From: a phage
Direction: 5' to 3' (one strand)
NCBI GenBank assembly: GCA_012441205.1
Contig: GCA_012441205.1_4705.1
Length of the DNA stretch: 64,000 nt
Positions within the stretch are counted from its first letter, which is position 1; the number at the start of each line of letters is the position of its first letter. The position numbers and the translations under genes were made by a program. Below, one piece after another: positions 18,557-64,000 of this stretch. The notes beneath the pieces are model-generated. The model was not told the DNA's origin and did no database searches. It saw nothing but the letters and a program-made list of their open reading frames with translations.

Positions 18557-18916
18557 CAATATCTTCAATACGAATCGCTACTTCGTATCCGCAGCATTAC
18601 CTGCAGCTCCTGGTGTTACCAGGATGTTGAGAGTATATCATGTCCATATTCCAAATGGAACGTAGGACTTCCGCGCTGGATCTCGCTTGAGACCACTTAC
18701 TCGTTGAACGTTCTCCTAAAAGGAGCTTCGCTGCTGATTGGACATTGTTACGTACGGTAGGCGTCCCACTAAAGGGATTTTCATTGAAGCCGCGTACATC
18801 CGTTACCTTGTTTCTACCTTATCGGTTCCTCTTACGAGGCGTAACGGCTTTAGCCTATTCCAGCAATTCACGGAATGCATATTCTCCTTTTCAGGAGATA
18901 AGGCCATGGCTCTGGC
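18557..18916 (-). mobile_element. group I self-splicing intron 2 (ORF-less, about 360 nt; 5' boundary approximate)
   Basis: diverged tandem copy of intron 1 with the same P/Q/R/S order; P7 pairs compensate (GAGUA/UACUC versus GAUCA/UGAUC); 3' end GAAGATATTG| before ATGAAC. Confidence 0.6.
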
Positions 18917-18931
18917 ATCACCGTCAAAGTC
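18917..18931 (-). CDS. beta-prime N-like subunit, 15-nt micro-exon GACTTTGACGGTGAT (DFDGD)
   Basis: joins in frame to exon 1 to rebuild NADFDGD; the 5' splice site of the following intron is not resolved, so the exon could be a few codons longer. Confidence 0.55.
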
Positions 18932-19281
18932 CACGTATCTTCAGTATGAATCGCTACTTCATACCCGCAGCATTACCTGCAGCTCCTGGTGTTACCAGGA
19001 CGGAGAGATCATCTCATCACCCACGAAGGGTGTTCCGCGCTACCCTCAGCGAATTCGAGGGACATGATCGTTGAACCTTCCACCGATGATCGATGGCTAG
19101 GCTGCTGATTGGACATTGTGCGTTGGGGTGGCATCCTGGTTCAGGACTGTCATTGAAGCCTCCCAACATCCACTCACTTATTTCCGCCTCATCGGCTCCC
19201 ACAAGGGCAGAGTGGCTTTAGCCCGTCTCAGCAATTCACGGAATTCAAGCTCTTCCTTTCGGAAGGCAGGGCCTCATTTGA
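18932..19281 (-). mobile_element. group I self-splicing intron 1 (ORF-less, 350 nt)
   Basis: exon ends GCU| with a possible U.G pair in P1 (GCUUC/GAGGC); P-like GAATTGCTG, Q-like AATCAGCAGC, R-like GTTCAACGATCA, S-like GATGATCTC; 3' end GAAGATACGTG| before GAC. Confidence 0.7.
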
Positions 19282-20532
19282 AGCGTTGTATCCCTTAAGG
19301 ATCATCACGCTTAACCCGATGGTGTTATCCTGCGGATCGCGTTTAACCTTGGTGATTTCAAGACATTGGTTACTGCTTCGGTCAAGTGATGGGTTTCGAA
19401 CAAAGCCACACACAATCCCATCGAACGGTGTATCAGCAATAAGCTCATCGTGCAGCTCGCTCATCATTGGATGATAATTACGGACATGTTCCGCAACGAA
19501 CGCACGTGCTGCTCTTGGCGAATAACCACGATGGAATAACTTGGATTGGATATGTTCTTTATTGGTTAAAGTAAATGGTGCGTATGGGAAATGCAGATGA
19601 TAATAACGATGGTTTGCTGTTATCGAACTGATTACGGTACGCGTGGTGAATGGATGTAATGTACCTAATATGTTTTTACGTGTGATACCTTTCTTCTTAC
19701 CAATGAACTCATCGAAAATTGCTGCGTGGTATTGCAGTAGCTTCAATTGTACTTTCGCCATCCAGTTTTCTTTCTTTCTGGCGCTCAAAGGTGTTGTTGG
19801 GTGATAGATACTATTCAACGTACCGATAGCATCGATCGCACCTTCCATTTTGCTATCTGCATAACGACCGGTTGGCGTATTCTCGATAACGAACATCATG
19901 GCCGCAGGAAAGCTGATATACTGACTGAAGAACTTATCACGATGGATACGGATGAATTCTCGTAGCGTGTCAACTTTCTCCGTGTTCTTCGGTCCACGTA
20001 ACGTAGGTCCTTTATACAAGATCTCCATGATGCGATCGAAGTTCTGTATAAAGCTATTTACGCCACGTCGTATCCCGAATACATCGAATTGCTGCTCCAG
20101 ATAGTTCTTGAGTTCGATGGGTCGTTTTACATTTGGACGGTAACTGGCATCAATGAGCCACGTCATCGTTTCAAAGCTTTTGATATTCAACTCGCTTGCC
20201 AGCACGAGATGGACCAACGGGTTAATGAACGCATCAATTCCTTCAGGAACACGCGCCCAAACCGTCGAACGAATCTCTTGTTCTGCTGGATAGGTTACAA
20301 CCGTTTTACAGTTCGGACACACCGTACCGAGCAGCTCACCACGATTGTAGAAACCACAACCACATTGTGGTGTGATATCCAACGTATCGCTGGAGTAAAC
20401 ACGGGTGATAAAACTGTTTAATTTCTTCTTCTCTTCGACGACTTTTGTATCGTAATCATTCAACAAAATCGGCGTGAAAGGAAGTTCTGCGAGCTGTCTA
20501 TCGAAACTCACGATATCGAGCATGATGGCCAT
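19282..20532 (-). CDS. RNA polymerase beta-prime N-terminal-like subunit, exon 1 (ends ...KGYNA)
   Basis: zinc-finger CGCGFYNRGELLGTVCPNCKTVV matches beta-prime [41 protein letters not shown] matches NLLGKRVDYSGRSVI; the ORF runs to GYNA and then reads through into intron sequence. Confidence 0.75.
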
Positions 20533-20624: not shown

Positions 20625-22520
20625 TTAGAACAGGTTGAATGCCCCACCCATGTTGTTAACGCCAACATTCGGACGATCGCTACGTGCGTAGATGTTACCG
20701 GAGATGTTACCCAGACCACGAGCACGTGCTGCCATGTTACCACGAACAGCGGTACCTGCCAGATGCTGGATGTTCTCAGGACGGATGGTGAAGCCAGCAT
20801 CAGCAGCGGCCTCGATCAGCGCCTGCAGTGCTAACGGATCGAAGTCGTAACGCATTGCCCAGCCGGTTTGTTCCCAGCTACCAGACAGAACACGATCAAT
20901 GATTTCGTGACGAGCGACAACACGCTGAGACATCGTCATATCGGTACGGTCGAAGCTGTCTTCCCAAGCTTCTACGGTATCCGGGTTAGTGATGTTCATC
21001 ATGTACAGATCGTCCATATCACGAATATCGTGACGGTGACCATCCTGGTGGTTATAATGACCCAGCGGGATACGGTTACCGGTAGCGTAGACCAGTGGTG
21101 CGCCGTACTGATATTTCTTGCTGAAGCAACCCAGGGTAGTATCATCGAAGGCACGGAAGAGTGCTTTGTAACCTTCGGAGATTTCCCGGACTTCACCTTC
21201 AACTTTGCCCGTATAGATCTTCTCAGCCGCCGGGATCATACGCAGCAGCCAGCTGTATTCGCCTTCTTCCGGTACGTCGATAGAAATCAGCAGAGACGGA
21301 TACAGTACCTGTTGCAGGAACTTGTAAATCTGCTCGTTGGTTTGAGTAGACAGATCCAGCGGTGCGGTAACTTCCGGATCCAGTACCATCGCCAGAGCAC
21401 CCGGGTTATGCGGACCAATACCACGAGCAGCGTTGCTGATTAAAGACTGTGCCCACGCCATACCGCTGTTCAGCGTAGCGATGGTGCCAATCAGACCCAA
21501 CACGAAAGTGTTCGGCGTGAACGCATCCAGCTCCAGCGGGTAAGCGCTGGTCATCACGTAACGCGGTTGGTATTGTACAGTCGGCGGTACCGGATAACCG
21601 TTAACCAGAACAGGGCCTTGGTTGAAGGTCGGGTTCTGCGGGCTGTAGGTCAGGTCAATGTAACCGGTGGTTGCGACCAGACGCTGCTGACTATCGTAAT
21701 CGCTCATCGCTTGACGGATGCGGTTAGAGATAGTTACAGTGATGTCAGAACGCACAGGGTTACCAACAATATCGCTGTCCTGCATACCGCTGGTGTTGTA
21801 CTGAACGCTGCTGATTGGCTGATCGCTTGCCATCATGCCCAGGTTGAACTGCGGCAGACCCAGTTTATCGCCGAGACGGATTTCGATCGCGGTTTGGATT
21901 GCGTTATCTGCAGCAGACAGCAGGGTGGTTGCCAGATGCGCAGATTCAGCGGTGATTTCATTGGTCACCACAGCCAGACCAGCGATACGAGCAGTACCAT
22001 TAGACTTACCACCGATAGCTGCATACATTGCCGCCATGACTTCGTTGATGAACGTACCGTTCAGGTTATCAACCCAGGTACGCGGCACCAGAATGTTACC
22101 ATGCGGGCCTTGTTCTTCACGACGCGGCAGCGGAGCCAAACCGGCAACCAGTGGAAGCACATAACCGAAGAAGTGGTTATGGTCACCAACTTTTGCACCG
22201 CTCATAACAACCAGGGTCGGATACGGTACACTGTATTGGTTAGGATCGACGGTCACCATGATGAAGTCGTCTTTGAATCCTTTATCTTCCAGTTCTTTTT
22301 CCATCAGACGACGGAGATTCAGTACCTGCTCGGAGCCAGTATTACGGCTAATACGACGGCTCAGTGTACGGTTGATCGTACGCATCGTATGAGTTACTTT
22401 AGGCTGGCCAGCAAAATCTGCAGCGGTTTCCAGCGCCTCATCAGCACGTTGTGCGGTGCGGGTTTCAGCTGCACGAATTTCTACATTATCGTTACCGTTA
22501 TTACGTACGTCTAAGCCCAT
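20625..22520 (-). CDS. abundant early protein, candidate nuclear-shell (chimallin-like) protein
   Basis: 631 aa with flexible N/C tails, strong AAGAGGAA RBS, TATATTACC element about 75 nt upstream, lies directly upstream of the beta-prime-N gene; identity not verified. Confidence 0.35.
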   Translation of the reverse strand: MGLDVRNNGNDNVEIRAAETRTAQRADEALETAADFAGQPKVTHTMRTINRTLSRRISRNTGSEQVLNLRRLMEKELEDKGFKDDFIMVTVDPNQYSVPYPTLVVMSGAKVGDHNHFFGYVLPLVAGLAPLPRREEQGPHGNILVPRTWVDNLNGTFINEVMAAMYAAIGGKSNGTARIAGLAVVTNEITAESAHLATTLLSAADNAIQTAIEIRLGDKLGLPQFNLGMMASDQPISSVQYNTSGMQDSDIVGNPVRSDITVTISNRIRQAMSDYDSQQRLVATTGYIDLTYSPQNPTFNQGPVLVNGYPVPPTVQYQPRYVMTSAYPLELDAFTPNTFVLGLIGTIATLNSGMAWAQSLISNAARGIGPHNPGALAMVLDPEVTAPLDLSTQTNEQIYKFLQQVLYPSLLISIDVPEEGEYSWLLRMIPAAEKIYTGKVEGEVREISEGYKALFRAFDDTTLGCFSKKYQYGAPLVYATGNRIPLGHYNHQDGHRHDIRDMDDLYMMNITNPDTVEAWEDSFDRTDMTMSQRVVARHEIIDRVLSGSWEQTGWAMRYDFDPLALQALIEAAADAGFTIRPENIQHLAGTAVRGNMAARARGLGNISGNIYARSDRPNVGVNNMGGAFNLF

Positions 22521-22774: not shown

Positions 22775-23869
22775 ATGTTTCGTGTTTTAAATAACCTCCC
22801 GCGAACATCATCGGGTGTGCAACCCGTCCCTCAGAAAGACTATCTAATACGCGAAGTTCAAAGAAACCTACAGACAATCCAGAACCACTATCAAGGTTTT
22901 ACCTTCGCGGTTCAGAGCGATCACATCCTTGCGTTGCTGCTCGCACAGCTCCCTATGAGATACGACATCTCAGTACAAACTTACTACGACATGATTCTCG
23001 ATCTTACTCCAGAATTGGGTAATCGTGTTAAGTTGACAACATCAAGATACGCGGGTAAGTTATTCGACGGTGCTTTCTATCCGGGATTGCACGAAGCTAT
23101 TATCGCAACCGGTGAAAGTCGTCTTATTTCACGTGACGTTCTTGACAACTGGCGTAATTGGTCACCGGTTAGAATCGTGACGCACCCATACTCAAATCTT
23201 CGTTACATTCCTCTTCACCGAAAGCCGGTTGAAGAAGGACGAGGTTTTGCGGTCATTATGGTTGATGTACCTTTATTAGCGCTACAGTATCGAATGTGGT
23301 CTTTGGTCATGGGTCATAACGTCGACGGCAAATGGGTGGTTAAAGAACCGGTTACAAGCTTCCTTGCGAGTTTTCCGTTGGTTAACGCATTATACTCACA
23401 CAACGATGTTGTTATACGCAATCGTTGTTTGTGGGTATCTCCGGCTAAGAATCCACTCAAATCACCAATTTACGTTAACGACCTTGATAACGTATTCAGT
23501 CAAGTCGTTCTGTCCGTACAGCATCATTTATTACGAAGAAGACGAAGCTACACCGACATGCTTAAACAGATACCGAGTTTATACGGGGATCAGTACCAAG
23601 CAACCCGAATGGGTTACACCGTCGATCTTCGGCAAACGCGATGGGCAAGGGATCTGGGTTGTCTGTCATTATGGCAACAACTCGTCACGTTGCAAAACGT
23701 ATCTGAAAGCGTCGGGTTCAGCAGTCAAATCGATAATGACCTGTACCGTGCTGCCGACCGGAGTCTAAAAGAAGGTAACTGGGAGTCCTCTCCGTTACCT
23801 GGCGATTTAAGACGTGAAGTTATCGCACAGGTTGCCGACCTCTTAAAAATTCTTCCCGCTGGTGCATAA
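22775..23869 (+). CDS. hypothetical protein
   Basis: 364-aa plus-strand ORF, ACGGAG RBS, conserved 12-mer in leader. Confidence 0.5.
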   Translation: MFRVLNNLPRTSSGVQPVPQKDYLIREVQRNLQTIQNHYQGFTFAVQSDHILALLLAQLPMRYDISVQTYYDMILDLTPELGNRVKLTTSRYAGKLFDGAFYPGLHEAIIATGESRLISRDVLDNWRNWSPVRIVTHPYSNLRYIPLHRKPVEEGRGFAVIMVDVPLLALQYRMWSLVMGHNVDGKWVVKEPVTSFLASFPLVNALYSHNDVVIRNRCLWVSPAKNPLKSPIYVNDLDNVFSQVVLSVQHHLLRRRRSYTDMLKQIPSLYGDQYQATRMGYTVDLRQTRWARDLGCLSLWQQLVTLQNVSESVGFSSQIDNDLYRAADRSLKEGNWESSPLPGDLRREVIAQVADLLKILPAGA

Positions 23870-23935: not shown

Positions 23936-26089
23936 TTACTCTGCGGTTTCTTGCTTCGGTAAATAACTTGCTGCGATGTCTTGGGCTAACAATGTATTGT
24001 TTTTATTCGAGATGAAAATACCATAACTTTCCATTAACGCGTAATACGAACGCACGAGCGTAGAGATCAATCGACGAATATCCATACCTTGAATAAAGAT
24101 ATCAGGAAGCCCGGAGGCTTCGATCACCGGTAATGGTATCGTTAAGTTGCTTATCGTTTTCTTATCGTTACGTACAATCCAATCACGGAAACGTTGTTGT
24201 AACCCTTTATCCTCCCAGGAATCAATCCAATCGTTAAGAAGCGTTTTGTTCTTCGTCGCCAACGGCACACGAACCCCAACATAGGGTGGTTCCTGGCAAT
24301 GGCCGTACGATTGAGCAAACACCTCTTCCCACATATCGTAAGACTGTTTCGTTACTGCAACATGCGGTTTCACTTTAACACGTGTTAAGAAATCAGGATC
24401 ACCACGTTTCATGGACTCAACGATTTCGTTTTCTAACGAGATAATATCGTCAAGAACCAATCGAATGCTGATCTTCTCGTTACGTAACAGCTTATCCATG
24501 ATACCACACATCATGCGTTCAACACGTTTGACGATCATTTTTGGTGCTGACGCATCGCGCATAACCGGACCTTTCAATTCCAGCTTCGGTGGATTGATGG
24601 GAACCCCTTCACGCATGGTCATGTATCCGTAATAGTTTTTACCCATCGAGGTTAACGACAGAATCAAGAACATATATTCGTTCTTCATTTCCATTACGTA
24701 CATATGCTCTTTCGCTACACCGATATTACCAGAACACATCGCCATCAGATGAACCGTAATCTGCGTAACCAGATAGATAAGCGTATTTGCTAAGCGCGTC
24801 GAAATTGGATTGATCTCCATATTTCCAAATCGCCACTGAACCCACTCCTGGCAGGTAAACACCGTCGAGTCGGTATCAGACAACACACCCACTTCACGGA
24901 TTGCTGACGGAAAAGCATAAACACCGGCCGGTTGGTTCTCGGTACGCCATAACGCCTTAATTAAATCAGCGTAGCTTTGGATGCGTTGCAACATTAATTT
25001 TGTCGTTGCTGCAGTAAGACGATAACCAAGTTCATTTCCTTTTTCCAGAGCTACGTAAATCGCTTCCCCGTTCAAGAACTCCGTGCATTGTGCCGTAATC
25101 CAAGCGACCGTGTTGTTATCCATGGAAGCAATAATGGCTTTAGCCTCTTCCATCGTTTCAACAGGTTCGGATGCCAGCTCGCATAACGAATCAAGAAAAT
25201 CTCGAACAAATTCAGGATTAAGCTCACGTAACGAGTACAGGTTATTGCTATACATGTAGCAGGCGCGTTCCAGTGGGGTTAAACCGGTAATTAACTCCCG
25301 GATAGTCAGTTCTTTCTCTGGGTCGAAAGTATACCGATGCAAGCATTTCGATACGTTAGCCCAAACCTCTTCCGGCGTAGGGTAATGTAGTTTGTATTTT
25401 ACCATTACCTGTTCAATGGCTTTACGATCGCTGTTGCGGACAATACTCACGATGTTTTCAATTGCGATATCACAATCGTAATAATGGAAATTGCCCGCAA
25501 GGAAGCGTTCGTTGTTCGCATTGGCTGAACCTGAAGCACAGCGACACGTTGTCGTTAAACTTGGATGCGCAATTGGATTATAAAAAGGGTTAAACTTGGA
25601 CGCCTGGGTTCCTGACAAACTGTTGTTATCTAACTTGGTGTTGGTTTGTCGTTTATCGTGTAACTCAGCTTCATCTTTACGTCCGTGTGCTTGCGCTATC
25701 GACATTTGTTTCTTTTGTTTCTTACGCAACTTACCGTTTTCAACCGCAAAGTCGCTTAGCACACTGGAACGTGTTTCACGTGGATAACAGTTAGCCCACA
25801 CCGGCGTGATAATTAAATTATTTTCTTTAATATCATTGAAGTATTGGCTGAACATGATGACTTCTTTTTCTCGATTTCCTTCGGTGCGCTGTGTTAATAC
25901 AAGGCAGTCGGGATCAACCATCCCGTATTTTCCACCAGGACGAACCGTATCAAGGACAAACTGCAACGCTTCCTGCTGTGATATCCCACGCATGCGCATT
26001 AAGAACAGGGTATAATCCTGTACCGCTTCTTTGGTCATATCCAACGTACGGCCATATCCGTTTTCATCGTAAAAGAACGGATTTTCCAT
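23936..26089 (-). CDS. large hypothetical protein with polymerase palm-like motifs (SDTDS then KNYYGY)
   Basis: 717 aa; DTDS and a K-x-Y motif about 80 aa later resemble family-B DNA polymerase motif C and KxY; motif A not clearly found. Confidence 0.3.
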   Translation of the reverse strand: MENPFFYDENGYGRTLDMTKEAVQDYTLFLMRMRGISQQEALQFVLDTVRPGGKYGMVDPDCLVLTQRTEGNREKEVIMFSQYFNDIKENNLIITPVWANCYPRETRSSVLSDFAVENGKLRKKQKKQMSIAQAHGRKDEAELHDKRQTNTKLDNNSLSGTQASKFNPFYNPIAHPSLTTTCRCASGSANANNERFLAGNFHYYDCDIAIENIVSIVRNSDRKAIEQVMVKYKLHYPTPEEVWANVSKCLHRYTFDPEKELTIRELITGLTPLERACYMYSNNLYSLRELNPEFVRDFLDSLCELASEPVETMEEAKAIIASMDNNTVAWITAQCTEFLNGEAIYVALEKGNELGYRLTAATTKLMLQRIQSYADLIKALWRTENQPAGVYAFPSAIREVGVLSDTDSTVFTCQEWVQWRFGNMEINPISTRLANTLIYLVTQITVHLMAMCSGNIGVAKEHMYVMEMKNEYMFLILSLTSMGKNYYGYMTMREGVPINPPKLELKGPVMRDASAPKMIVKRVERMMCGIMDKLLRNEKISIRLVLDDIISLENEIVESMKRGDPDFLTRVKVKPHVAVTKQSYDMWEEVFAQSYGHCQEPPYVGVRVPLATKNKTLLNDWIDSWEDKGLQQRFRDWIVRNDKKTISNLTIPLPVIEASGLPDIFIQGMDIRRLISTLVRSYYALMESYGIFISNKNNTLLAQDIAASYLPKQETAE

Positions 26090-26164: not shown

Positions 26165-26192
26165 AACCGATCCAGCCGAAGCCAGATCGGTT
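26165..26192 (-). terminator. hairpin aaccgatc/gatcggtt followed by U-run
   Basis: 8-bp stem, TTCTTTTTTAT downstream in minus sense. Confidence 0.45.
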
Positions 26193-30477: not shown

Positions 30478-31458
30478 TTAGAAAAGCAAGAAACCGCTAT
30501 TCTTCGCTTCCGCTACAGTTTCGTCACCAACTTTCGGCGCTTGTTGACGTGCGTTACGATGTTCGATGTAACGTTTCGCTTCGTCCGCGATCTGTTTGAT
30601 AATACCCCCTAAACGATCGGTACTTAAAACAAACGACGTCGCTTCACGAATTGGGCTGCTTTCAGGCACAAAACCATCGCAGCTGTAAATAGCGCTAACG
30701 CCCATGACTTTTGTCGCGTCTTTCGGATAAAGCGTACAGAAAGCAATCGGGCTATCGTTCTCTTTCGTCCAATCGTATCCCATGAACGTATTCAGTTCGG
30801 TGATCGTTGGTTCCAAACCGGTAACACGTGGATGGTTTAAGAAGTTTTCCAGGTCGGCGCTGTCAAGACGACGGTTCTCGCCAGAAAACAGAACACAAAG
30901 CTGGCTAATAACAACCTGCACGTCCAGGTTGACATCCTGCTCCGATTTCCCATTTTCGCCATTCATGTGATAGCTAACAATCACTGGACGTTTCAACCCT
31001 TCTGCAGCCGCCATCAGTCCTTTGAAGGTGCGATCGGCGTTGATCGTTTGACGCTCGTCATCGAACGAGGCAACGATGCAACACACCACACGTTCACCAC
31101 GTTCCAGCAGGTTAGCAACCAACGCAGGACCTGCAACAGAACCTGAACCACCGCTCAGACTAAAGACCACGATATTAAATTTACCTGGCGTATGCTTATT
31201 CAGAATACCCGGGATTTGTGAACAGATCAGTTCAGCGTTCTCATCACGCTTCTTACCAGAACCGTCTAACTCACGACCGGCTACATCTTTAAAGATGTAA
31301 ATATGATCGTCACCCAGTGTGCTATCGCGTAGGTTAGCGCGGCTGGTATCGACATACGTCATGCTGTGTAATCCTTTCGCGACTTCGCCTTCAAATGCTG
31401 AGCCGATTTCGCCACCACAACCACCGACAGCCCAAATATGTACTTGGTTCTCTTGCAT
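30478..31458 (-). CDS. phuZ: tubulin/FtsZ-like GTPase, PhuZ-like
   Basis: N-terminal IWAVGGCGGEIG (T1 loop-like) and FSLSGGSGSVAG (tubulin signature GGGTGSG-like); 326 aa. Confidence 0.65.
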   Translation of the reverse strand: MQENQVHIWAVGGCGGEIGSAFEGEVAKGLHSMTYVDTSRANLRDSTLGDDHIYIFKDVAGRELDGSGKKRDENAELICSQIPGILNKHTPGKFNIVVFSLSGGSGSVAGPALVANLLERGERVVCCIVASFDDERQTINADRTFKGLMAAAEGLKRPVIVSYHMNGENGKSEQDVNLDVQVVISQLCVLFSGENRRLDSADLENFLNHPRVTGLEPTITELNTFMGYDWTKENDSPIAFCTLYPKDATKVMGVSAIYSCDGFVPESSPIREATSFVLSTDRLGGIIKQIADEAKRYIEHRNARQQAPKVGDETVAEAKNSGFLLF

Positions 31459-41441: not shown

Positions 41442-43181
41442 TTATGCGACTTTACTAATAACGACTGCTGTGATACCGAGATGTAGGTCGACGCCATTCT
41501 GTACTTTAATCCAGCGGATATACAGGTTAGCGTTATCCTGTCCCGTACCACCTGGGACGTTATTGTTCCTATTCCATTGCGAGATTTCGAAACGTTTCTG
41601 CACGTTAGGACCAACCATGATTTCAAAGTGGGTCGGTTCTGGTGCTTTCGATTCCGTTTTCTCAAGATAGAGCGGATGTGTCGCGTAGTAAAGTTGGTTC
41701 AACCATTCACCCAGATCTGAGTGTTTGTTCGTCAAGTCAACATACGCGTTACCAGCAACATCGTAAGTAAACAACGCTTTCGTGTTACGACCGTACACAT
41801 CCGTTGTCGTCGGCGTTGTTTGCGAGCTGAACGTTACTGTCCAGTAATCACCGGATGTTGCCGAACCTGCTTGCAATAGCGTCATTCGAATAGTCTGCGT
41901 ATGACGTACGCGTTTGTAAACGGTAGGATCGACTTCATCTAACCAGATGTTGTACGCAAATTCCTGAGGTTGTCCGTATTTCTTCGGATTAAACTCAGGG
42001 CTGTTCAGCGCCAATTGTACTTTATCGGTTACGTTGTAGTAACGTTCACGGTCGACGTTGTACAACCAGAACACCAGCTCGTATCCCACAGCATCAGATA
42101 CCCATTGCGGATAGCAGAACAGTTTAACACTGTAAGCCCCTTTCGCTTCTTTAGAAACGACGGTATAAGGCACACTGATGTGTTTCACCGCTCCTGGTAA
42201 CGCGTAGGATGTGTCCTCATCGTCGTCCAGGTAGTAGTGTAACGCCAGCGGATGTTTGCTGTTGATGACCTGGGACGTGAAGACGTTAAGGCCGTCCAAC
42301 ACAACCTTGTTACCAGTAACCGGCCAATGTTTAATGGAACCATCACTGTAAGTGACTTCAGCCTGAAGGTCGACGGAATCCAGGTTGACGTTGATCGGTA
42401 ACTCAAGCAGTTTGGTATCGCTGCTGCTCAGCCACGTTGATTTCAGTCGTACCCCGTCTTCCAGAATATATTTAATACCCTGGTCTGGGGTGCGTACATA
42501 GTCAGTGATACGAACGATCATGCGTTTCATGGATAGCGGCTGCGGACCGTCACCATAACCTACTACCATCACCTGCTCAAAATCTTCGACAGGCTTAATG
42601 CAGTAACCTTCACGAGGTGCCCAGATAGCTTTATTCGTTCCGTCTTTGTAAGCGATAAGCTGACACGGAATGAAATCGCTGATCTTATTCCCGCTGTTGT
42701 CATACATCGCACTGATGATTTCGCCTTTGGCGCTGATATCAGAACCGCGGAACACTGCGATACGTCGAATATCCGAGCCATGCAGATGGAAACGACGATC
42801 GATGTTCATTGTAGCAGGGATCGTGTTCGTATTAATCAATACACGCCATGTATCGTACGACCACGTCGGGTCAATACCTTCAAAGGTTGTCGTCCCATCG
42901 CCCTGACCATCGAACGGAGCAGACAGCTGACCGATAAGTTTAAGGGTACTTAGTTTTGTGCGATCGTCTACGGCGATAACACGGTACACCGCATTCGTAT
43001 CCCAGTCTTCAACTTTATCGTCCACGTTGGGGACGTAAAGTTTCCAGTCTTCTTCAACGCCATTATAGATCTCTTTATACGCATAGGTGGTATAGCGTCT
43101 GTCGAGATCCTGAATAGCGAGTTTATCCGGATGCTGTTGTGCATAAAGCACCGGATTGGTAATCTCTCTTCCCATTATCAC
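41442..43181 (-). CDS. hypothetical protein, possibly virion-associated
   Basis: 579-aa ORF upstream of the terminase gene. Confidence 0.45.
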   Translation of the reverse strand: MIMGREITNPVLYAQQHPDKLAIQDLDRRYTTYAYKEIYNGVEEDWKLYVPNVDDKVEDWDTNAVYRVIAVDDRTKLSTLKLIGQLSAPFDGQGDGTTTFEGIDPTWSYDTWRVLINTNTIPATMNIDRRFHLHGSDIRRIAVFRGSDISAKGEIISAMYDNSGNKISDFIPCQLIAYKDGTNKAIWAPREGYCIKPVEDFEQVMVVGYGDGPQPLSMKRMIVRITDYVRTPDQGIKYILEDGVRLKSTWLSSSDTKLLELPINVNLDSVDLQAEVTYSDGSIKHWPVTGNKVVLDGLNVFTSQVINSKHPLALHYYLDDDEDTSYALPGAVKHISVPYTVVSKEAKGAYSVKLFCYPQWVSDAVGYELVFWLYNVDRERYYNVTDKVQLALNSPEFNPKKYGQPQEFAYNIWLDEVDPTVYKRVRHTQTIRMTLLQAGSATSGDYWTVTFSSQTTPTTTDVYGRNTKALFTYDVAGNAYVDLTNKHSDLGEWLNQLYYATHPLYLEKTESKAPEPTHFEIMVGPNVQKRFEISQWNRNNNVPGGTGQDNANLYIRWIKVQNGVDLHLGITAVVISKVA

Positions 43182-45772
43182 TCACCTTTGATTGTGTAAA
43201 ACTTCGTGAAGTCCACGCGATCTTTCAAGAACTCACGACTGACGCGTTCTAAGAACCGCAGTTGTTTAACCGTAACTTCAAGCGGCGTCCAACTGTCGTG
43301 TGGATGAATAGAGACCATCCGCCAATCGTAATTACGTAACGCAGGATCGTAGTCATAGAACCATTTATACGGCTCCATGAAATCCATCAGTTTAACGTCC
43401 TGCATATCAGGATCGGGATCGATAACACCATTGATAAGATCGTACGTTACCGCCATCAACGTTGGGCTGATAAGCTGGTATTTGTTTTCAATCGTTACCG
43501 GCGTATCGTACTTCACACGAGGGAAATACAAGGACATATAGTCTTCAACGCGTTTATCGGTTTCAAGACTTTTGTCGCGTAGATAATACGTGTCTGTGTT
43601 CACGAGACCACGGATAGGGGCAATAACATGGTAAATCGCATAAGGCACCCCATCGTTGACTTTGATGTCGGCAGGGTATTGCGTGTCCTCTGCGGTAACC
43701 ACTTCGCTACGATCGTAAATACGTCCACCAACCACAATACGAACAACATGGTCGTCACGAACATTAAACACGTCGTCGTAAGAAAGCTGATTATGCATCG
43801 TCCAACCGGTATCGTAAACGGTTTCACCGGTTAAGTCCGTACGTGGAAAACCAGTACATCTCACGGTAACCGTGTGCGTGTTCCCTTCACTGAAATACCG
43901 TTTCGCGTTGATCATGATCGTTGGCCATTTTACGATATAATCGATATCGCGTACCAAGCTGTAGCTTTTGGTTGCTCGCTCGTCACCTAACCATACTTCG
44001 ATTTGACCAGGTTCGAAAGGCAGCGGATATTCAACATCAATACCCGTCGTAACATCCAACCATACGGTGTGGTTACGATGTTGTATTGTGGTCTTATACG
44101 CTAAGAAGTAGGTGTCGAACAATACTAAACCGGTTTGCTTTCTTCCATCCAACGACCATTTTATTACCCCGTTCTCTTCCGTTACCACAGAAGCATCGTC
44201 GGTAACATCCTTCCATGTGTTCGCGACAGGTTGTCCGTTACGAAGATTTACGCTATAACAGCGGTAACTCGCCCATTCACGGATTGGGACGTCGGCAACA
44301 CCCATCACGTAATCAAGCGTTCTCCCACCAACACCCGATCGACCCTCAACATAGGACGTGGTTTCATATTGCGGATAAAAATGTCGGCCTGCCGGATGTT
44401 GCGTGATACCCAATAATAGACCGTCACTGTCGTACTCAAAGAACGTCGCATTTGCACGTAAACCCCATGGTACTTCAGCGGTAGGGGTACCCATATCGTC
44501 AGTAACGCGTTGTGGACTATCTGCAACCAGTTTTGCCATCGCGTTATACCCGTAAGCGGAGGTCACCATGTCGATCGTGATATTGCTTTCCTTATTACGC
44601 ATGATGCGTGTATAATCACTGGCTTCAAGCGTGCGTGCAAAGAACTCGGGTATATTAGCGTTCTGTTCTAACATCGCACCGACGATGACGTCGTCTGGAA
44701 GTTTATACAGTTCGTGGATGCGGTTATGTTCGAAGGTTAACTGCGTTTTCAAACCGCTATCACGGACAACCACTTCCAGGGTTAAATCACGAAGCGATTC
44801 TGCTCCATCAACCCGTTCAACGAAGTAGCTGACATAATCAACAGGAATCCCGTAATCACGATGCGTGAGCATGCGGATACTATTTTCCTGGTTGGTATGG
44901 TAATAACGTCCTTTTCCGTTAGGCCCTTTCACGTAGATATCAACGTCATCACGATACCGGATTTTAGTATCCGCTTCATCTTTCGGCGGATGAATAAGAT
45001 ACTTCACTTTTTTGTCCAGATCGCCGTTGTACGTTTTAAGATCTTCTACACGGAAGCTGTACCGATGAACAACGGTACCGTCATAGACGACCTGAATGCT
45101 ATCACCGATCTTAAAACTTGTCGGCGGAATGTCTTCAACCGCTTCACCATTGATACTGCAGTGCGTCCAGCCGATACCGGTTTCCTGAATCTTTTTACGC
45201 CAGGCGTATAGCTGACGCTGCCACTGTAGAACCTGTGTCGAGCTGGTTACAATCCCCCCAAGGACATGCACTTCACGCCCCGTCGGTTTCGTGTATGACG
45301 GATAGCCTTCTGCGAAGTCGGCGTTGAGATAGGTGCGCCAGTAATAATCACCAACGCCAAGGTCAGCGATATTCGGTTGGTCGAGCACACAGACCAGCAT
45401 CGTTTCGTTTTCCAGATTACCCGTCCACGTTAATGTCAACGGGAATTCTTTACCGTCCTCGGTATAGATATTGTAATACGATCCCTTCACCTCACAGAAC
45501 TTGCTGAGTTCTCGCCACCACAACCGACCCGCCCCGACATTAAAATCCTCCCCCATATGTCGTCCAATAACAAACACATGGAACGTATTGGTATCATCAG
45601 GAAGATTGAATGTACGATGCCAAGCCGTAAAGTTTTTTACTGCGCCGGTCTTTCCGGTAATACGACGCATCTTGATACGATGCTGGTTGTCCATTAATGG
45701 ACGGCAGTTCACATTCAGCGCAGCATGATTTATCAAGTATTGCGCTGTAGGATTAGAAGCGTTCAACACCAC
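43178..45772 (-). CDS. large hypothetical protein, possibly structural
   Basis: 864-aa ORF, ATGA overlap with downstream gene. Confidence 0.45.
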   Translation of the reverse strand: MVLNASNPTAQYLINHAALNVNCRPLMDNQHRIKMRRITGKTGAVKNFTAWHRTFNLPDDTNTFHVFVIGRHMGEDFNVGAGRLWWRELSKFCEVKGSYYNIYTEDGKEFPLTLTWTGNLENETMLVCVLDQPNIADLGVGDYYWRTYLNADFAEGYPSYTKPTGREVHVLGGIVTSSTQVLQWQRQLYAWRKKIQETGIGWTHCSINGEAVEDIPPTSFKIGDSIQVVYDGTVVHRYSFRVEDLKTYNGDLDKKVKYLIHPPKDEADTKIRYRDDVDIYVKGPNGKGRYYHTNQENSIRMLTHRDYGIPVDYVSYFVERVDGAESLRDLTLEVVVRDSGLKTQLTFEHNRIHELYKLPDDVIVGAMLEQNANIPEFFARTLEASDYTRIMRNKESNITIDMVTSAYGYNAMAKLVADSPQRVTDDMGTPTAEVPWGLRANATFFEYDSDGLLLGITQHPAGRHFYPQYETTSYVEGRSGVGGRTLDYVMGVADVPIREWASYRCYSVNLRNGQPVANTWKDVTDDASVVTEENGVIKWSLDGRKQTGLVLFDTYFLAYKTTIQHRNHTVWLDVTTGIDVEYPLPFEPGQIEVWLGDERATKSYSLVRDIDYIVKWPTIMINAKRYFSEGNTHTVTVRCTGFPRTDLTGETVYDTGWTMHNQLSYDDVFNVRDDHVVRIVVGGRIYDRSEVVTAEDTQYPADIKVNDGVPYAIYHVIAPIRGLVNTDTYYLRDKSLETDKRVEDYMSLYFPRVKYDTPVTIENKYQLISPTLMAVTYDLINGVIDPDPDMQDVKLMDFMEPYKWFYDYDPALRNYDWRMVSIHPHDSWTPLEVTVKQLRFLERVSREFLKDRVDFTKFYTIKGE

Positions 45773-54983: not shown

Positions 54984-56507
54984 TTACACCTCGCTAATCT
55001 GGATAACGTAAAGCTGCTGGGCCACGTAATCGGTGGTCAGATGCATCGTTGCGATGGTCGCTGCTTCGAACACCGTGAGTTCAGGACGTTCACGCATAAT
55101 CAAATCGATCTCATCGATGAGACGGTTAACGCCTTGAGCGTCTTCGTGATGCATGGTTTTCACGTACAGCGTACGGAAATACTGCTGGAAGTTAGCTACG
55201 TCGGTATCGGTAAGGGTAGCAACTTCACCACGTACGATTTCCATAACCTTCTTACGGGTATCTTCATCGAGGTCCACTGTAATCAGGTCAGCAAATACGC
55301 CCTGCAATGCCAACGCGTATGCACGTAAGCGGTTTGCGGCCTGCTGACTGGCTTTCATGTTGATGTAGTTACGGTAATGCTGCATGAAGCCTGCACCGTT
55401 AGCCAACAGCTCATCTTTACTGATGAGTTCACGTTCTAACAGGACAGCTGCGGTCAGTGCTTCCGGCGAACCACCTTCTTGCAGATAACCCATGTAGACA
55501 TCTGCGTTAACGAAAATCGTCATCGTTGACGCATCTTCAGCACGTTGAATCTGAGAAGCCGACGGTGCAGAAAGAATCAGCTCACCACGCTCCATACGCA
55601 GGATACGATCACGACCGACGCGGGCCATCCCGTTGATCGCCGCAGCGCGAGCTTGTTGCATTTTAGCGCGGTAGTTTTCAAGCATCATGTCGTTGCCGTC
55701 CTGGATATCTTCCAGCAGGTTAACGGCCCACATATAGCAGAGGAATGCAGGAGTTGCCGCAGCGCGGGAACCGTGGAATGCAACGTTATCGCTATCCGGA
55801 TATGTAATCAGATAAGCGGTGTTGTTCGAAGAAGGAGCGGAACCACGGAAGAAATAGTTGTAGATGTCTTCCAGTGCCTGATCGCTCATCCCTTCCGTTG
55901 CTTGCTGTACAAAACGATCCAGGTTTTCATTACCGGTATACAGCAACGTACGCAGCTTATCACCGGTGATAAACGCAAGCTTTCCGGTTGGAGTGAAATC
56001 GTTATTAATCGAAATCAAGCCATTGAGGTCATAATCGCTAACTAAGGCCTGGTACTCTTCGGAGTTATAAAACTCAGGATAGTAACTCAGACTTACTGTC
56101 GGGATCAGTTTCGGTGCCAGGATGATCGAATCGATGCGTTTTTCCAGTTCCGGGTACAGCGCACGGCATTTCGGCAGGATGGTATTACGCGCCAACTCTT
56201 TGGCATACACCACTTTTTCCACCACGTCTTGAACTGCGGTCTGTAAAACTTCATCGTGGATATAAACCTCGCGTTCGCTGGCAGGTGCTACAACGCCATC
56301 TTCGGTTTCATCAAGTGTTTCAGCAACAACCATACGTTCAGCACTAAGCTGCACCAACGCATCCGCGTCTTCCGGCGGCTGGTTCCAGTGCATGGTTTCA
56401 CAAACCGCGGCTAACGGCGTGCCCGGAATGGCTGCGACGATTTGGTTACGTTTGATAAACCCTTCGACAATAGGCTCAACAGCATAAACGGTTTTATTGG
56501 TGATCAT
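54984..56507 (-). CDS. hypothetical protein
   Basis: 507-aa ORF. Confidence 0.5.
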   Translation of the reverse strand: MITNKTVYAVEPIVEGFIKRNQIVAAIPGTPLAAVCETMHWNQPPEDADALVQLSAERMVVAETLDETEDGVVAPASEREVYIHDEVLQTAVQDVVEKVVYAKELARNTILPKCRALYPELEKRIDSIILAPKLIPTVSLSYYPEFYNSEEYQALVSDYDLNGLISINNDFTPTGKLAFITGDKLRTLLYTGNENLDRFVQQATEGMSDQALEDIYNYFFRGSAPSSNNTAYLITYPDSDNVAFHGSRAAATPAFLCYMWAVNLLEDIQDGNDMMLENYRAKMQQARAAAINGMARVGRDRILRMERGELILSAPSASQIQRAEDASTMTIFVNADVYMGYLQEGGSPEALTAAVLLERELISKDELLANGAGFMQHYRNYINMKASQQAANRLRAYALALQGVFADLITVDLDEDTRKKVMEIVRGEVATLTDTDVANFQQYFRTLYVKTMHHEDAQGVNRLIDEIDLIMRERPELTVFEAATIATMHLTTDYVAQQLYVIQISEV

Positions 56508-56841: not shown

Positions 56842-59800
56842 TTATTTGGCGTCGTTAAAATAAATATCAACAGCTCGTTCCGTTGCGTAGAGGAGACCAA
56901 GATTCACAGTCCCAACCACTTCCGGTGAACCGATGATACGGTTAGCGATACTGGTGCCACTGAAGATAGCATCAAGGGTGTGCCCGTCTTCGGTTTTGTT
57001 CACACCATGACCCACGGAAGAGACAACGGATTTCGCTTGAGCTGCGAAGGTACCTTTATCGCCCATCCCCGCACCAAGGTCGTAACGCATGAAAATACGG
57101 ATTGCGATCTGGTTCTCGCCTAACGGATTACCGTCTATTCTCACGTTACTGTTATTGATACGCCCCGTAGTTGCTTCGTTGAGTTTCAGTTCCTTAACGC
57201 GTTTAGCTCGCGCTTTATCTGCATCACCGACGAGCGCCGCCATGGTTTCACTCATATCCTCAATCTGAGCGCGGTACAGCACATCGATCTGTACAACTTC
57301 ACCATGAACGTCAGCACGTGGGTTATACTGACTCATACGACGTAATGCTTCAACGGCTTCCTGACTCTCATCACTCAGATCGGTCGCAATCGGTTCTTCC
57401 AGTGTTGCAAGGATCGTTCGTGGTTCAACATGATCGCCGATTTTCACGAGACCACGAATGTTGAGATGGGCGTCAACGATGAGCGTACGGCTCTTAATCG
57501 ATGGTGTTACGAGACGATCGGCAAGATTGTCGAAGATATACGAACTGTCCTCGTGAGTCTCTGGAATATCCAGAATACCGACAAGAGACAGAACACCTGC
57601 GCGCCAAACAACCTGACCTGGGTTCCACCAATCGCGTTTAAAATAAAGACGATGGAAGACCACCACATCCTGATCCTTAACGCGATCCCCGACTTTATAA
57701 TCGGTAATGAGATCGTGAGGATAATACTTACCTGGTCCTTTCCCGATTATCGTACCGAGCTGGAAAACCTCTTCCCCTAACTCTGGATCGTCGTATTGTA
57801 TCGTCAGCGCAGTTTTGGTGACCTTCTTAACAACACCGTCACCTTGGGCGGCAGCTGCAAAGAGTTTACCAACACGATGCGCGATGACAGTCTCACCGCC
57901 GGTGCGCCACGGTTGTACATCGTAACCCTCAGCGGCAATCATGCGGTTGTGTTGGATCCCGACGAAGACCAGACGTTTTCCATCATCACGGTCTACAGCC
58001 GGAACAGCTAACGCTGACGTACTCATTACCGATGAGATGCCGTCTGTCTTTTCATCGAATGGTCGTGTTTCACCATACACCGACACGATATTAGCATTAG
58101 GTGCAAGGTAAGCAGAGATACCCACATCCCCACTATCTTTCGTACCCTCTGACACAATACCAACATCGGACTTGTCGTATTCACGATCACGTGCGCGTCG
58201 AAGCGATGTCTTTGAACGACCCCCGATACCGGTCATCGTTGCTTCTTCACCCTGCTTGATATCCAGCATCGGGTTGGTTTCATCGATCACGATGGACGCG
58301 CTGTCGTCGAGAATTTGGTTCCAGACACTTACCGGACTGATTGAGATTTTCTGGCGGTTTCCTTGACTGCTGTTCTCATTCTGACGAATAGCGCCAACCA
58401 GATCCTTATACACCAATTCAGCGAACTTATCGTACGTTTTAAAACGTTGGTAGTTCACATCGTTCGTGTTAGGTGCCCAATCATCCAGAAGCAGTTCAAC
58501 AGCACGCAGTAACAACATGGCGAAATCGGTAGGTTCTCCCATGTTCTGTAGCAACGTACGGCTTACCGGATCAACGAAAAGACGCTCCATGAGTTCAAGT
58601 TCGCGTAAATGGCGAACCTTAAGTCCGGCACCATCGACAACGTTAAAATAGATATCTCGATTGTCGAAAGCACCGCGAGCGTAACCGATGTAGTTACGGT
58701 ACTCGTTAAATCCGCCCAGCAACAACGTCGTCATGCGATCGTCTTTACTGAAGATCAAACTTTCGTCATCAAAGCTCACCGCGAATTCATCGGGTGCTAG
58801 ACCCATACGAGAACCGCGAGGTACCGTACGATAGTTCGCTTTAAGATGTTCTAATAACGGGGTAAGTCCACCCAGATAACTTAGAACAACACCAACCGGA
58901 ATACGTACACCCATGAATTCAAGATCGGCGGCTTCGATCGGCATCTTAGCCGCATTGATACCGAAGAAATCAGGGAACGTCCCTACAGGTGTTGGTGTTT
59001 GTCCTGACTGACAGATATAGAGCTGATTGCGTTTATCGATTGCTAAGAATTCACCCAGCGTGTTACGCGCAAACGTCAGGAGCCCTTCGGCTAACTGTTC
59101 GTTGAACCGATCTTCCCCGATGAACTCCGGTAGCGTTTTTATATCGAGACGTATATCCCAATCAGCAAATTGGATTTGGGTATAGTTGCGTGCAAGCACA
59201 GCGAAGTAATACGGGACTTTGACGGCCGGATCAAAGACGTTACCACGTTTTAACGTGGTTAAGGGTGAGGACTTATCGTAATACATCGCTGTAAGTTGGC
59301 GTGTTAACCAACGACCGGCGTTATTAACGACACGCTCTGAACGTTTAACAAACACCTTACCGTAGGCGGTACTCAACGCAACTTCGGATGATGATACCTT
59401 TCTAATAGGTTTATCAACACGTTGTTTACGCATCCGGTATTTGATGCCGTTAACGACATAAATGCCGTCCTTACGAACCTTCGGCAACATCACCGGGAAC
59501 GTGGTTGGGACACCGCCTACAGGGGCCAGTTTAATCGTGATGACTTGATAATCCCCCATCACGTCAACAACATCTTCAACTTTATATCCCGTGACAGGGT
59601 AACCTGCCTGTTGTACGGCAACAACAGCGGCTGCGATGTCCTTTTGCATCACGTGTTCAACGTAATGTTTATCCCACACCGCAAGCGTCGATTTACATAG
59701 GCTCTTATCGACGATAACATCCGCTTCCGGCATAACCTTTGCTGGCGCTAATTTCGCGGCTTTTGGTTTAACTTCAACATACTCAGCAAGTGTTAATCCA

Positions 59801-61188
59801 GAACCGTCGGGTGCTTCGATTTCATGGATGGCGTCAGCATTACGCATCGCTGCTTTATATTGGACGCCGCTTAACTGACCCGCATCAGCCAGATCGCTCG
59901 CGCGTACCAACACCGCATCCGATAACGACTGAATATATTCACCGTGCGTTTTTGGTAACGTTGCCGCGTCAAAGACATCAACCTTTTCTTCTTCGGTATC
60001 GTCGGTAACGACTTCGAAGAGATCGTCGGTAATGTCCTGATCTTCATCAGGTTGAAAATCCGGCTGTACTTCTACCCCGGGTACTTCACGGACATCTTCG
60101 AACGAGCGTTCTACAATGGCGTTCCACGCATCAGCGTCATCGTCTTCATCCGACCCACCAACCAACTCCGCTTCTAACTCATCGGAATCAAGAACAGTGG
60201 CCAGATCCTCACCGTTAGGAAGCACGACGTCGCGATCATCGTACTCTGCATCCGGGCTGTCCGCAAGAATATCTCGCTCTTGACGAAGAACCTGTTCCTC
60301 TTCTTGTTTCTGTTCTTCTTCATTCGCGCTCTGCGACCATAGACGTGTTACCGCCATCATCCAACGACGCTGGAAGGTTTCGAGTGTCGTTTTATCGAGT
60401 TCTTCCCCTTCCTTTACAAGCCCGGTACGCCATTCTTCCAACAGGCCGAGATTCAGCGTAAAGAAGTACACACCGTCTGTAAATACAACGTTAAGCTTAT
60501 CCAGCGTGGCTCTGTCTAACGAAGCCATTGTGCTGTTCTCACGATCGGTTCCCAACCAGCGGAAGAAGTCAAAGAACGACAGCTCCTCCGGCGTGGCGAA
60601 ATTCATGAGGTTGTTACGGGTCGGTGCCTGTTGCGTGGTACGCATCAACGAAATCTTCGGCAATGTTGACGGTATACGGAACAACAAAAAGTGTTGGCGA
60701 TCGCTTTGCTGCGCGATTTCGTTGGCTTTCGACCAAATTGTTTTACGTACGTTGAACCATTCATCATACCAACGGGTGAGCGTTGGACGATAGATGTACA
60801 TGTGGTTAAGATGTGCGTAGTTAGCAACGATCTGAGCGTTGATGTTTTTCTCCACCGTACTTAGATCGGTAACCAAACGAAAACGACGATGTGACGCACG
60901 ATAATCCAATTTCGCTCGTGGGAGCTGGAATCGCTGATCACGTCGAGGTGCACCCTGTTTGGTTGCGAGATCATCAGCAAACGAAATCCATAGTTGAGCA
61001 CTTTCTTTACTCAACATGTATTCGTTTTCTGGAGGACCTATCAATGAAGGATCCGTTGCGGTGTAATGATAGACAGCATAACGTGGCAGCTGCAATAGCT
61101 GCACTAAACGTAATCTCGGTGACAATAGCTCTTGGTATCGTCTGACGCCAAACTGTCGGTAGTAATCAAGGTATTTAAGTTTTGCCAT
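56842..61188 (-). CDS. RNA polymerase beta N-terminal-like subunit with about 500-aa acidic N-terminal extension
   Basis: [14 protein letters not shown]...AGRWL matches beta [20 protein letters not shown]...RGSWL; [32 protein letters not shown] matches [43 protein letters not shown] matches LIPFLEHDDANRAL; ends after a GDK...GHTLDAIFS segment matching GDKMAGRHGNKG...GTPVDIVLNP. Confidence 0.65.
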   Translation of the reverse strand: [1448 protein letters not shown]

Positions 61189-63353: not shown

Positions 63354-63983
63354 ATCACCACCAAGTCCGGCGAGGTATGGCGCAGGGACAATAGTCGTTT
63401 CTACGAACGAAGCATTAGGTAACCAGTCGGGGTATTCCCATGCGATAAATCGTTCATCCGTTATTGGTTCCCAGTTACTATCCAGTTCGGTTTTCGGTTT
63501 TGCGGCGACGGTTGTACGTGCGTAACAGGTTAACGGGATAACGGATTGCATACCTGATACCGGATAACGTGTTACCATCGCAGCCAGGTTATTCCAGTAC
63601 TTATATCCGGCAATATAGATAAGCTCGGTGTAAGTAATGGGGTGAACATCCGCGCCAGGTTTATTCAACATCTCCGGGGGTAATTCACTCATGTCACGGA
63701 ATAACCGAAACGAATCGTTGTTCACATAGACGAGGCAAAGATATCGTCCATTGACCATGATAGGCTCGTTACGCACGCCAGGATCGCTTAAGGTGTTCAG
63801 TAAACGTTCTATTCCGTCCCATGTTGTAAAGTCATCGATGGTGTCTGGATCAAGCGTGACGCGCTCACGTTCCATCGTTTCGGTATCAATAAGTTCAACT
63901 TCTGTAACATCACGGACAAATATTTCCTGCAAAATACCGGTACGTAACGCATGTTGCGTTACTGGGAGAGCGGCTTTACTCAT
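63354..63983 (-). CDS. second beta-prime N-like subunit, exon 1 (ends ...YLAGLGGD; 5' end may be incomplete)
   Basis: TRYPVSGMQSVIPL matches beta-prime RVDYSGRSVITVGP; the terminal D supplies the first Asp of DFDGD; the last two codons and stop of the raw ORF are intronic. Confidence 0.5.
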
Positions 63984-64000
63984 CTGGTATAACCCTAACT

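Follow-up and report, generated by a model that had tools for sequence, protein, structure and literature searches.

The analysed window, a 64-kb stretch of phage DNA, carries on its minus strand an intact open reading frame (ORF) that starts with ATG, has a GGAGG ribosome-binding site 5 nt 5' of this codon and shows no intein signature (Table 1). On its sequence we assign the ORF to DNAP-C, the C-terminal subunit of the split family-B DNA polymerase of chimalliviruses. The genes found around it, namely chimallin (the nuclear shell protein), a piece of the beta' subunit of the multisubunit phage RNA polymerase (RNAP) and the tubulin PhuZ, are hallmark genes of nucleus-forming jumbo phages (Chimalliviridae); upstream of DNAP-C lies the SH3-fold gene SH3DP.

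Table 1. Coordinates of the DNAP-C gene, its motifs and predicted domains, and neighbouring features in the 64-kb window
Feature	Residues	Position	Strand	Basis or remark
RNAP beta' piece, multisubunit phage RNA polymerase		19228-20532	-	
Chimallin		20625-22520		
DNAP-C gene	717 aa	23936..26089	-	PF20286; orthology to Goslar gp244 and PhiKZ gp50
Thumb (predicted)	~511-717	23939..24559	-	AF2 secondary structure; ~330 residues aligned to known polymerases
Palm core, motif C and KxY (predicted)	401-510	24560..24889	-	Conservation; PhiKZ and RB69 alignments
KxY (K484-N-Y486)	484-486	24632-24640	-	
Motif C (DTDS)	405-408	24866-24877	-	
Palm insertion, second DNAP-C segment, all-helical (predicted)	~198-400	24890..25498	-	PhiKZ gp50 221-419
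Fingers helices and next palm helix, with motif B (predicted)	~105-197	25499..25777	-	Invariant columns, profile match, model
Motif B (KLDNNSLSG)	152-160	25610-25636	-	
Palm insertion, first DNAP-C segment (predicted)	1-89	25823..26089	-	PhiKZ gp50 residues 1-98
Terminator-like hairpin, 12-bp stem then T run		26165..26192	-	Between SH3DP and DNAP-C
SH3DP, SH3-fold	137 aa	26389..26802	-	PF20287, E 1.3e-36; orthologue of Goslar gp243 and PhiKZ gp49
PhuZ tubulin		30478-31458		

Comparison with Escherichia phage vB_EcoM_Goslar gives 97% nucleotide identity over the DNAP-C gene and a similar value, about 97%, for almost all of the 64 kb, the window corresponding to about 149-214 kb of Goslar (genes gp165 to gp205). 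The phage of the window is a Goslar-like nucleus-forming jumbo phage of E. coli, a chimallivirus; Goslar and the IMG/VR contig 3300045988_173921 are each about 97.7% identical to the window over the aligned stretch. The counterpart of DNAP-C in Goslar, gp244 (YP_009820875.1, annotated 'DNA polymerase'), likewise has 717 residues and is 99.4% identical, with four substitutions (M79K, K378M, L380F and I429V), none of them at a motif, beyond which no difference in the polymerase was found between the window and Goslar. Its partners in that phage are gp68 (DNAP-N) and gp190 (Rhc). Goslar also shares the neighbours of the window, with SH3DP, a gp245-like gene, chimallin and the RNAP beta' piece.

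Apart from the nucleotide divergence of about 3%, the two phages differ in the adjoining RNAP beta' gene, which has an intron and an HNH gene in Goslar and neither in the window. There, the gene is uninterrupted (region 18560-19282 and 19228-20532, minus strand) and its product ends in LKGYNASNEALPSERKSLNSVNC followed by the stop codon. Goslar gp247 is broken at that point by a group I intron of about 1.5 kb with the HNH endonuclease gp186, absent from the window, and in a third Goslar-like contig about 815 nt are inserted there. Just downstream of the gene in the window, at 18560-18905, the exon-2 end is repeated in degenerate form with about 340 nt of its 3' flank, 70% identical to 18936-19273; this duplication looks like the scar of an intron loss or an allele replacement. 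Another group I intron (Rfam RF00028, 57.8 bits) is located at 61435-61821 on the minus strand, between the ORFs 56842-61188 (a 1448-aa RNAP subunit) and 61806-63278 (490 aa, with HNH_3 and NUMOD1), an arrangement annotated likewise in Goslar (gs002, gp206). From 61473 to 64000 the window is only 86% identical to Goslar, compared to about 97% elsewhere. An 864-aa protein (43178-45772, minus strand) has a full-length match to DUF7193 (1013 bits); its Goslar counterpart gp220 is a hypothetical protein weakly similar to a putative virion structural protein.

The family membership of DNAP-C is given by the Pfam profile PF20286, 'Divergent Family B DNA polymerase' (divDNApol), which it matches with an E-value of 8.6e-204 and 679.1 bits against a gathering cut-off of 25.7. 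The match extends over residues 9-705 of the 717 and over positions 3-704 of the 705 in the profile, so that the whole family domain is covered. The protein also matches PHROG 2927, 'DNA polymerase'. All 116 homologues found in the database have 687-796 residues and contain PF20286 alone or, sometimes, together with PF00136.

Analysis of conservation in an alignment of 68 sequences, 24-64% identical to the DNAP-C query, revealed the signature residues of a family-B polymerase. The sequence-only reading had singled out VGVLSDTDST (residues 400-409) and KNYYGY (residues 484-489), about 80 residues apart, as motif C and the KxY motif of such enzymes. This is borne out by the alignment: D405, T406, D407, S408, K484 and Y486 are all invariant, the distance from D405 to K484 is 79 residues where family-B polymerases have the primer-terminus KxY some 80-85 residues past motif C, and D407 aligns with the catalytic D426 of PhiKZ. 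In the AlphaFold2 (AF2) model described below, short strands flank D405-S408, as in the metal-binding DTD(S) hairpin of the palm. Motif B, which that reading had not listed, is clear at residues 152-160, where it corresponds to KxxxNSxYG with the Tyr replaced by Ser; its K152, N156 and G160 are invariant, as are the basic triphosphate-binding residues R122 and K126. A further short stretch, MKNE, is found at residues 468-471 within the palm core.

Two elements of a complete replicase are missing from the chain, as had been remarked before. The homologue alignment contains no conserved Asp N-terminal to motif B that could stand for motif A (DxxSLYPS). The only DxD before motif B, in the 'VDPD' at residues 58-61, was considered for this role and rejected, its D59 varying among homologues. 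Similarly, neither a 3'-5' exonuclease motif nor a Pfam exonuclease domain was detected in DNAP-C, and none of the 116 homologues has an exonuclease domain.

A single-sequence phmmer search of the PDB sequences with DNAP-C returned zero matches, and a profile built from the 68-sequence alignment was needed. With this profile, the best 60 matches are all DNA polymerases and fall in two separate regions of DNAP-C. Profile positions 115-188 align with residues 627-697 of a poxvirus polymerase (E 1.5e-5), which places motif B opposite the KIxNSxYG of that enzyme (KIvaNSvYG), and positions 480-533 align with residues 706-759 of RB69 gp43 (E 2e-5); polymerases delta, zeta and alpha and archaeal PolB come next.

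The AF2 model computed from the alignment displays high confidence, with a mean pLDDT of 91.1 and a pTM of 0.87, and predicts a fingers, palm and thumb fold. The best 50 Foldseek matches in the PDB are family-B polymerases (RB69 gp43, T4 gp43, the ASFV polymerase and Pol alpha) with probabilities of 0.77-1.00. The TM-scores stay around 0.2, a low value as expected for a multidomain protein in which insertions take up over half of the chain and the domains are placed differently; about 330 residues can be aligned with the polymerases of RB69 and HSV and with Pol alpha and Pol delta. The profile search and the structure prediction, both proposed with the original reading, thus gave polymerase matches and a polymerase fold; neither of the outcomes named in advance as counting against it, no polymerase match or a different fold, was obtained.

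Domain limits were transferred from the cryo-EM structure of PhiKZ gp50 (PMC13648687) through the collinear alignment. In the AF2 model, the first segment of the palm insertion comprises helices at 18-49 and a hairpin at 61-79, and the fingers region is predicted as two long helices, 110-134 and 138-161. The 245 residues that separate K152 from D405 accommodate the second segment of the large palm insertion, modelled as helices between 206 and 395 with pLDDT mostly above 90. The thumb surface is where the clamp domain of Rhc binds in both Goslar and PhiKZ (PMC13648698, PMC13648687).

The elements absent from DNAP-C were found on the partner of its Goslar orthologue. In the Goslar genome, gp68 occupies 79690-81186 and, as its second exon, 82949-83203; about 93 kb separate it from gp244, and its spliced translation has 583 residues. 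It contains Exo I (FDIET at 154), Exo II (NIAFD at 254), Exo III (YNLWD at 389) and motif A (D501-ISSSYPN), matches PHROG 3011 'DNA polymerase' and gives a weak match to PF03104 (E 0.011); when the PDB was searched with the DNAP-N sequence alone, the only match was to an intein (E 0.5) and spurious. By tblastn, DNAP-N homologues occur in 291 phage records, mostly of Pseudomonas, Erwinia, Salmonella, Vibrio, Serratia and Aeromonas phages. The DNAP-C chain is therefore part of a PolB and incomplete alone, and the split falls inside the palm, after motif A, rather than at the boundary between exonuclease and polymerase. This position of the split explains why motif C and KxY had been seen without motif A, and it refines the earlier proposal of a polymerase part of a split replicase, which is otherwise supported. 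The separate exonuclease gene expected with that proposal exists in Goslar as gp68 and is absent from the window, in which tblastn with Goslar DNAP-N gave nothing at E <1. Rhc was not found within the 64 kb either. A 507-aa ORF of fitting size (54984-56507) was considered for Rhc and discarded, as it has no Pfam match and corresponds to the hypothetical protein gp209 of Goslar. Given the 97% identity to Goslar, we infer that the phage of the window possesses both DNAP-N and Rhc, outside the sequenced stretch analysed here.

The Goslar gp68 gene is itself interrupted, two codons before motif A, by an intron with the homing endonuclease gp69: exon 1 runs to residue 499 (...FVAD) and D501-ISSSYPN opens exon 2. 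The insertion point falls where the gene is most conserved, as is typical of homing sites. Owing to this interruption, the RefSeq CDS of gp68 is truncated (PMC13648698).

We consider it very probable, at roughly 0.95, that DNAP-C is one of two polypeptides that together form the replicative family-B polymerase and share its active site, with Rhc as a third protein; none of our findings speaks against this. DNAP-C would supply the fingers (R122, K126 and motif B K152/N156), the motif-C aspartates D405 and D407, the primer-contacting KxY (K484, Y486) and the thumb, and it would hold two segments of the large helical palm insertion, which has three. The partner DNAP-N would contribute the N-terminal domain, the 3'-5' exonuclease, the other catalytic aspartate, in motif A, and the remaining insertion segment. 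As motif A and motif C sit on separate subunits, the two-metal polymerase active site would be assembled from two chains. Rhc, composed of an RNase HI domain and a clamp-derived domain (gp190 in Goslar), would bind the DNAP-C thumb and the exiting duplex and stimulate synthesis. The present analysis itself establishes the family membership and the fold, identifies the motifs with their conservation, and locates motif A and the exonuclease in the Goslar partner instead of in this chain. What is said of the heterodimer, its catalytic activity, its essentiality and the part played by Rhc is taken from the literature, the biochemistry from two preprints not yet peer reviewed.

In PhiKZ, gp82 and gp50 interdigitate in a stable 1:1 complex of B-family architecture, determined by cryo-EM at 2.1 Å (Basu et al., bioRxiv Oct 2026, PMC13648687). 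The PhiKZ polymerase is split within the palm insertion, its active site combines D562 of DNAP-N with D426 of DNAP-C, and the complex has polymerase and exonuclease activities, while Rhc, with its RNase HI and clamp-derived domains, attaches to the thumb as well as to the exiting duplex and enhances synthesis (PMC13648687). In Goslar, gp68 and gp244 co-purify, and DNA replication is abolished when either is knocked down (Rani et al., bioRxiv Oct 2026, PMC13648698); an ipTM of 0.89 is reported for the Goslar proteins by the same authors (PMC13648698). The Goslar Rhc, gp190, uses its clamp domain to bind DNAP-C and moves the activity of the enzyme away from exonuclease and towards primer extension (PMC13648698). 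Template-directed synthesis has been reported for Goslar gp68 and gp244, with or without Rhc, and for PhiKZ gp82 and gp50 (PMC13648698, PMC13648687). Antisense knock-down of PhiKZ gp50, gp82 and gp155 lowers plaque formation (PMC12571901), and the orthologue of phage RAY has been found in the phage nucleus (10.1101/2023.02.24.529968).

These data also bear on three other explanations of the protein. If the short motifs were present by chance in an unrelated protein, KxY would be the weak point, since it is expected about 1.9 times at the composition of DNAP-C; it is meaningless on its own and derives its weight only from conservation. The expectation for DTDS is 0.007, and the full-length family HMM match, the conservation, the fold searches and the orthology to a characterised enzyme exclude chance. 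That DNAP-C is a decayed, inactive polymerase remnant with a structural role could be argued from the lack of motif A and exonuclease in the ORF, from its very low identity to canonical PolB and from the empty single-sequence PDB search. Such decay is exceedingly improbable for an intact ORF with a good ribosome-binding site in which none of the catalytic and dNTP-binding residues varies among the 68 aligned sequences, and whose PhiKZ and Goslar orthologues are required for plaque formation and replication (PMC12571901, PMC13648698).

A self-sufficient, exonuclease-less polymerase acting alone, for example as a primase-polymerase, was an idea floated by Iyer et al. in 2021, as these phages have no recognisable primase (PMC7824862). 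No primase is known in this phage family to date (PMC7824862, PMC13648687), and DNAP-C does possess fingers, motif C, KxY and a thumb. However, it has no conserved motif-A Asp before motif B, so the two-metal site could not be completed without a partner. In fact, the interdigitated PhiKZ heterodimer is stable, a D562A mutant of its DNAP-N is polymerase-dead, in effect showing DNAP-C by itself to be inactive in primer extension (PMC13648687), and knock-down of Goslar DNAP-N alone abolishes replication (PMC13648698), which makes independent action of DNAP-C very unlikely. The two-chain polymerase is accordingly the reading that we retain, and it concerns an enzyme that is already known: it has been described, and characterised experimentally in Goslar, a phage about 97% identical to that of the window.

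Among more distant relatives, PhiKZ gp50 is 32% identical to DNAP-C and collinear with it over the full length, with matching motifs and palm insertion and an SH3DP gene upstream; PhiKZ differs in host genus, and gp50 is 14 residues longer. The catalytic activity of Rhc is dispensable in PhiKZ and only partly so in Goslar (PMC13648698). The protein of the window is a full-length member of the 'group 1 jumbo phage' clade of divergent PolB, PF20286 (Iyer et al. 2021, PMC7824862). Its long helical insert ahead of the DxD hairpin, its lack of a fused exonuclease and the SH3-fold gene upstream agree with the description of that clade, whose signature according to the same authors is the 'unusually long multi-helical insert' (PMC7824862). 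They placed the whole palm on the DNAP-C-type protein and suggested that the exonuclease only associates with it (PMC7824862), whereas the later structure puts motif A on the other chain, in agreement with the homologue alignment.

Compared to the canonical family-B replicase, RB69/T4 gp43, the differences are large. RB69 gp43 is a single chain of 903 residues with exonuclease and motif A fused and without the palm insertion, whereas the present enzyme consists of two chains and carries about 290 residues of insertion in DNAP-C. RB69 relies on the ring sliding clamp gp45 and a clamp loader, in contrast to the monomeric, clamp-derived Rhc of the DNAP-C system. Other family-B polymerases are naturally split, such as archaeal PolB of Methanothermobacter and intein-split genes, in which the core is divided between two genes; their split point and lineage differ from those of DNAP-C.

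The gene next to DNAP-C, SH3DP, belongs to a Pfam family named 'SH3 fold domain associated with phage DNA polymerases' and has 42% identity to PhiKZ gp49. We surveyed synteny in 80 related IMG/VR loci, whose polymerases are 30-99% identical. Of the 75 loci that extend far enough upstream, SH3DP lies directly upstream of DNAP-C on the same strand in 74, and within 1.6 kb in all 75. A gp245-like gene on the opposite strand is found downstream in 65 of 71 (on the same strand in one more), and chimallin further downstream in 50 of 64. The gene order in PhiKZ is alike (gp49-gp50-gp52-gp54-gp55). Between DNAP-C and chimallin, the window has a 364-aa gene (22775-23869, plus strand), the one that holds this place in the 65 of 71 loci; it matches PHROG 3938 and, more weakly, a 'virion structural protein' PHROG; by position only, it corresponds to PhiKZ gp52, annotated 'structural head protein'.

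Between SH3DP and DNAP-C stands the strong terminator-like hairpin, for which the Goslar annotation has a 'putative transcriptional terminator' at the matching place. The two genes need not be co-transcribed. Knock-down of PhiKZ gp49 in the antisense screen causes a strong plaque defect (PMC12571901), and the main text of neither 2026 preprint mentions SH3DP (PMC13648698, PMC13648687). We treat SH3DP as an associated gene of DNAP-C, not as a shown polymerase subunit. Tentatively, and with the odds against it, it could be a fourth replisome component acting in initiation or priming, template handling or nuclear import of the polymerase; priming is considered here because these phages have no known primase.

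The features of the enzyme have already been described, through comparative genomics in 2021, a Pfam family, and cryo-EM and Goslar genetics in 2026. The copy in the window adds another near-identical allele and no new biology beyond the published description; the polymerase itself leaves no room for novelty, and SH3DP is the one loose end at the locus after that work. What the case mainly shows is that the right idea could be recovered by sequence alone from two short motifs. The enzyme is nonetheless a notable one: two gene products share the active site of this replicative B-family polymerase, which works inside a phage-built nucleus, has its palm enclosed by a unique insertion, and is served, in place of a ring clamp, by a monomeric clamp relic that is fused to RNase H.
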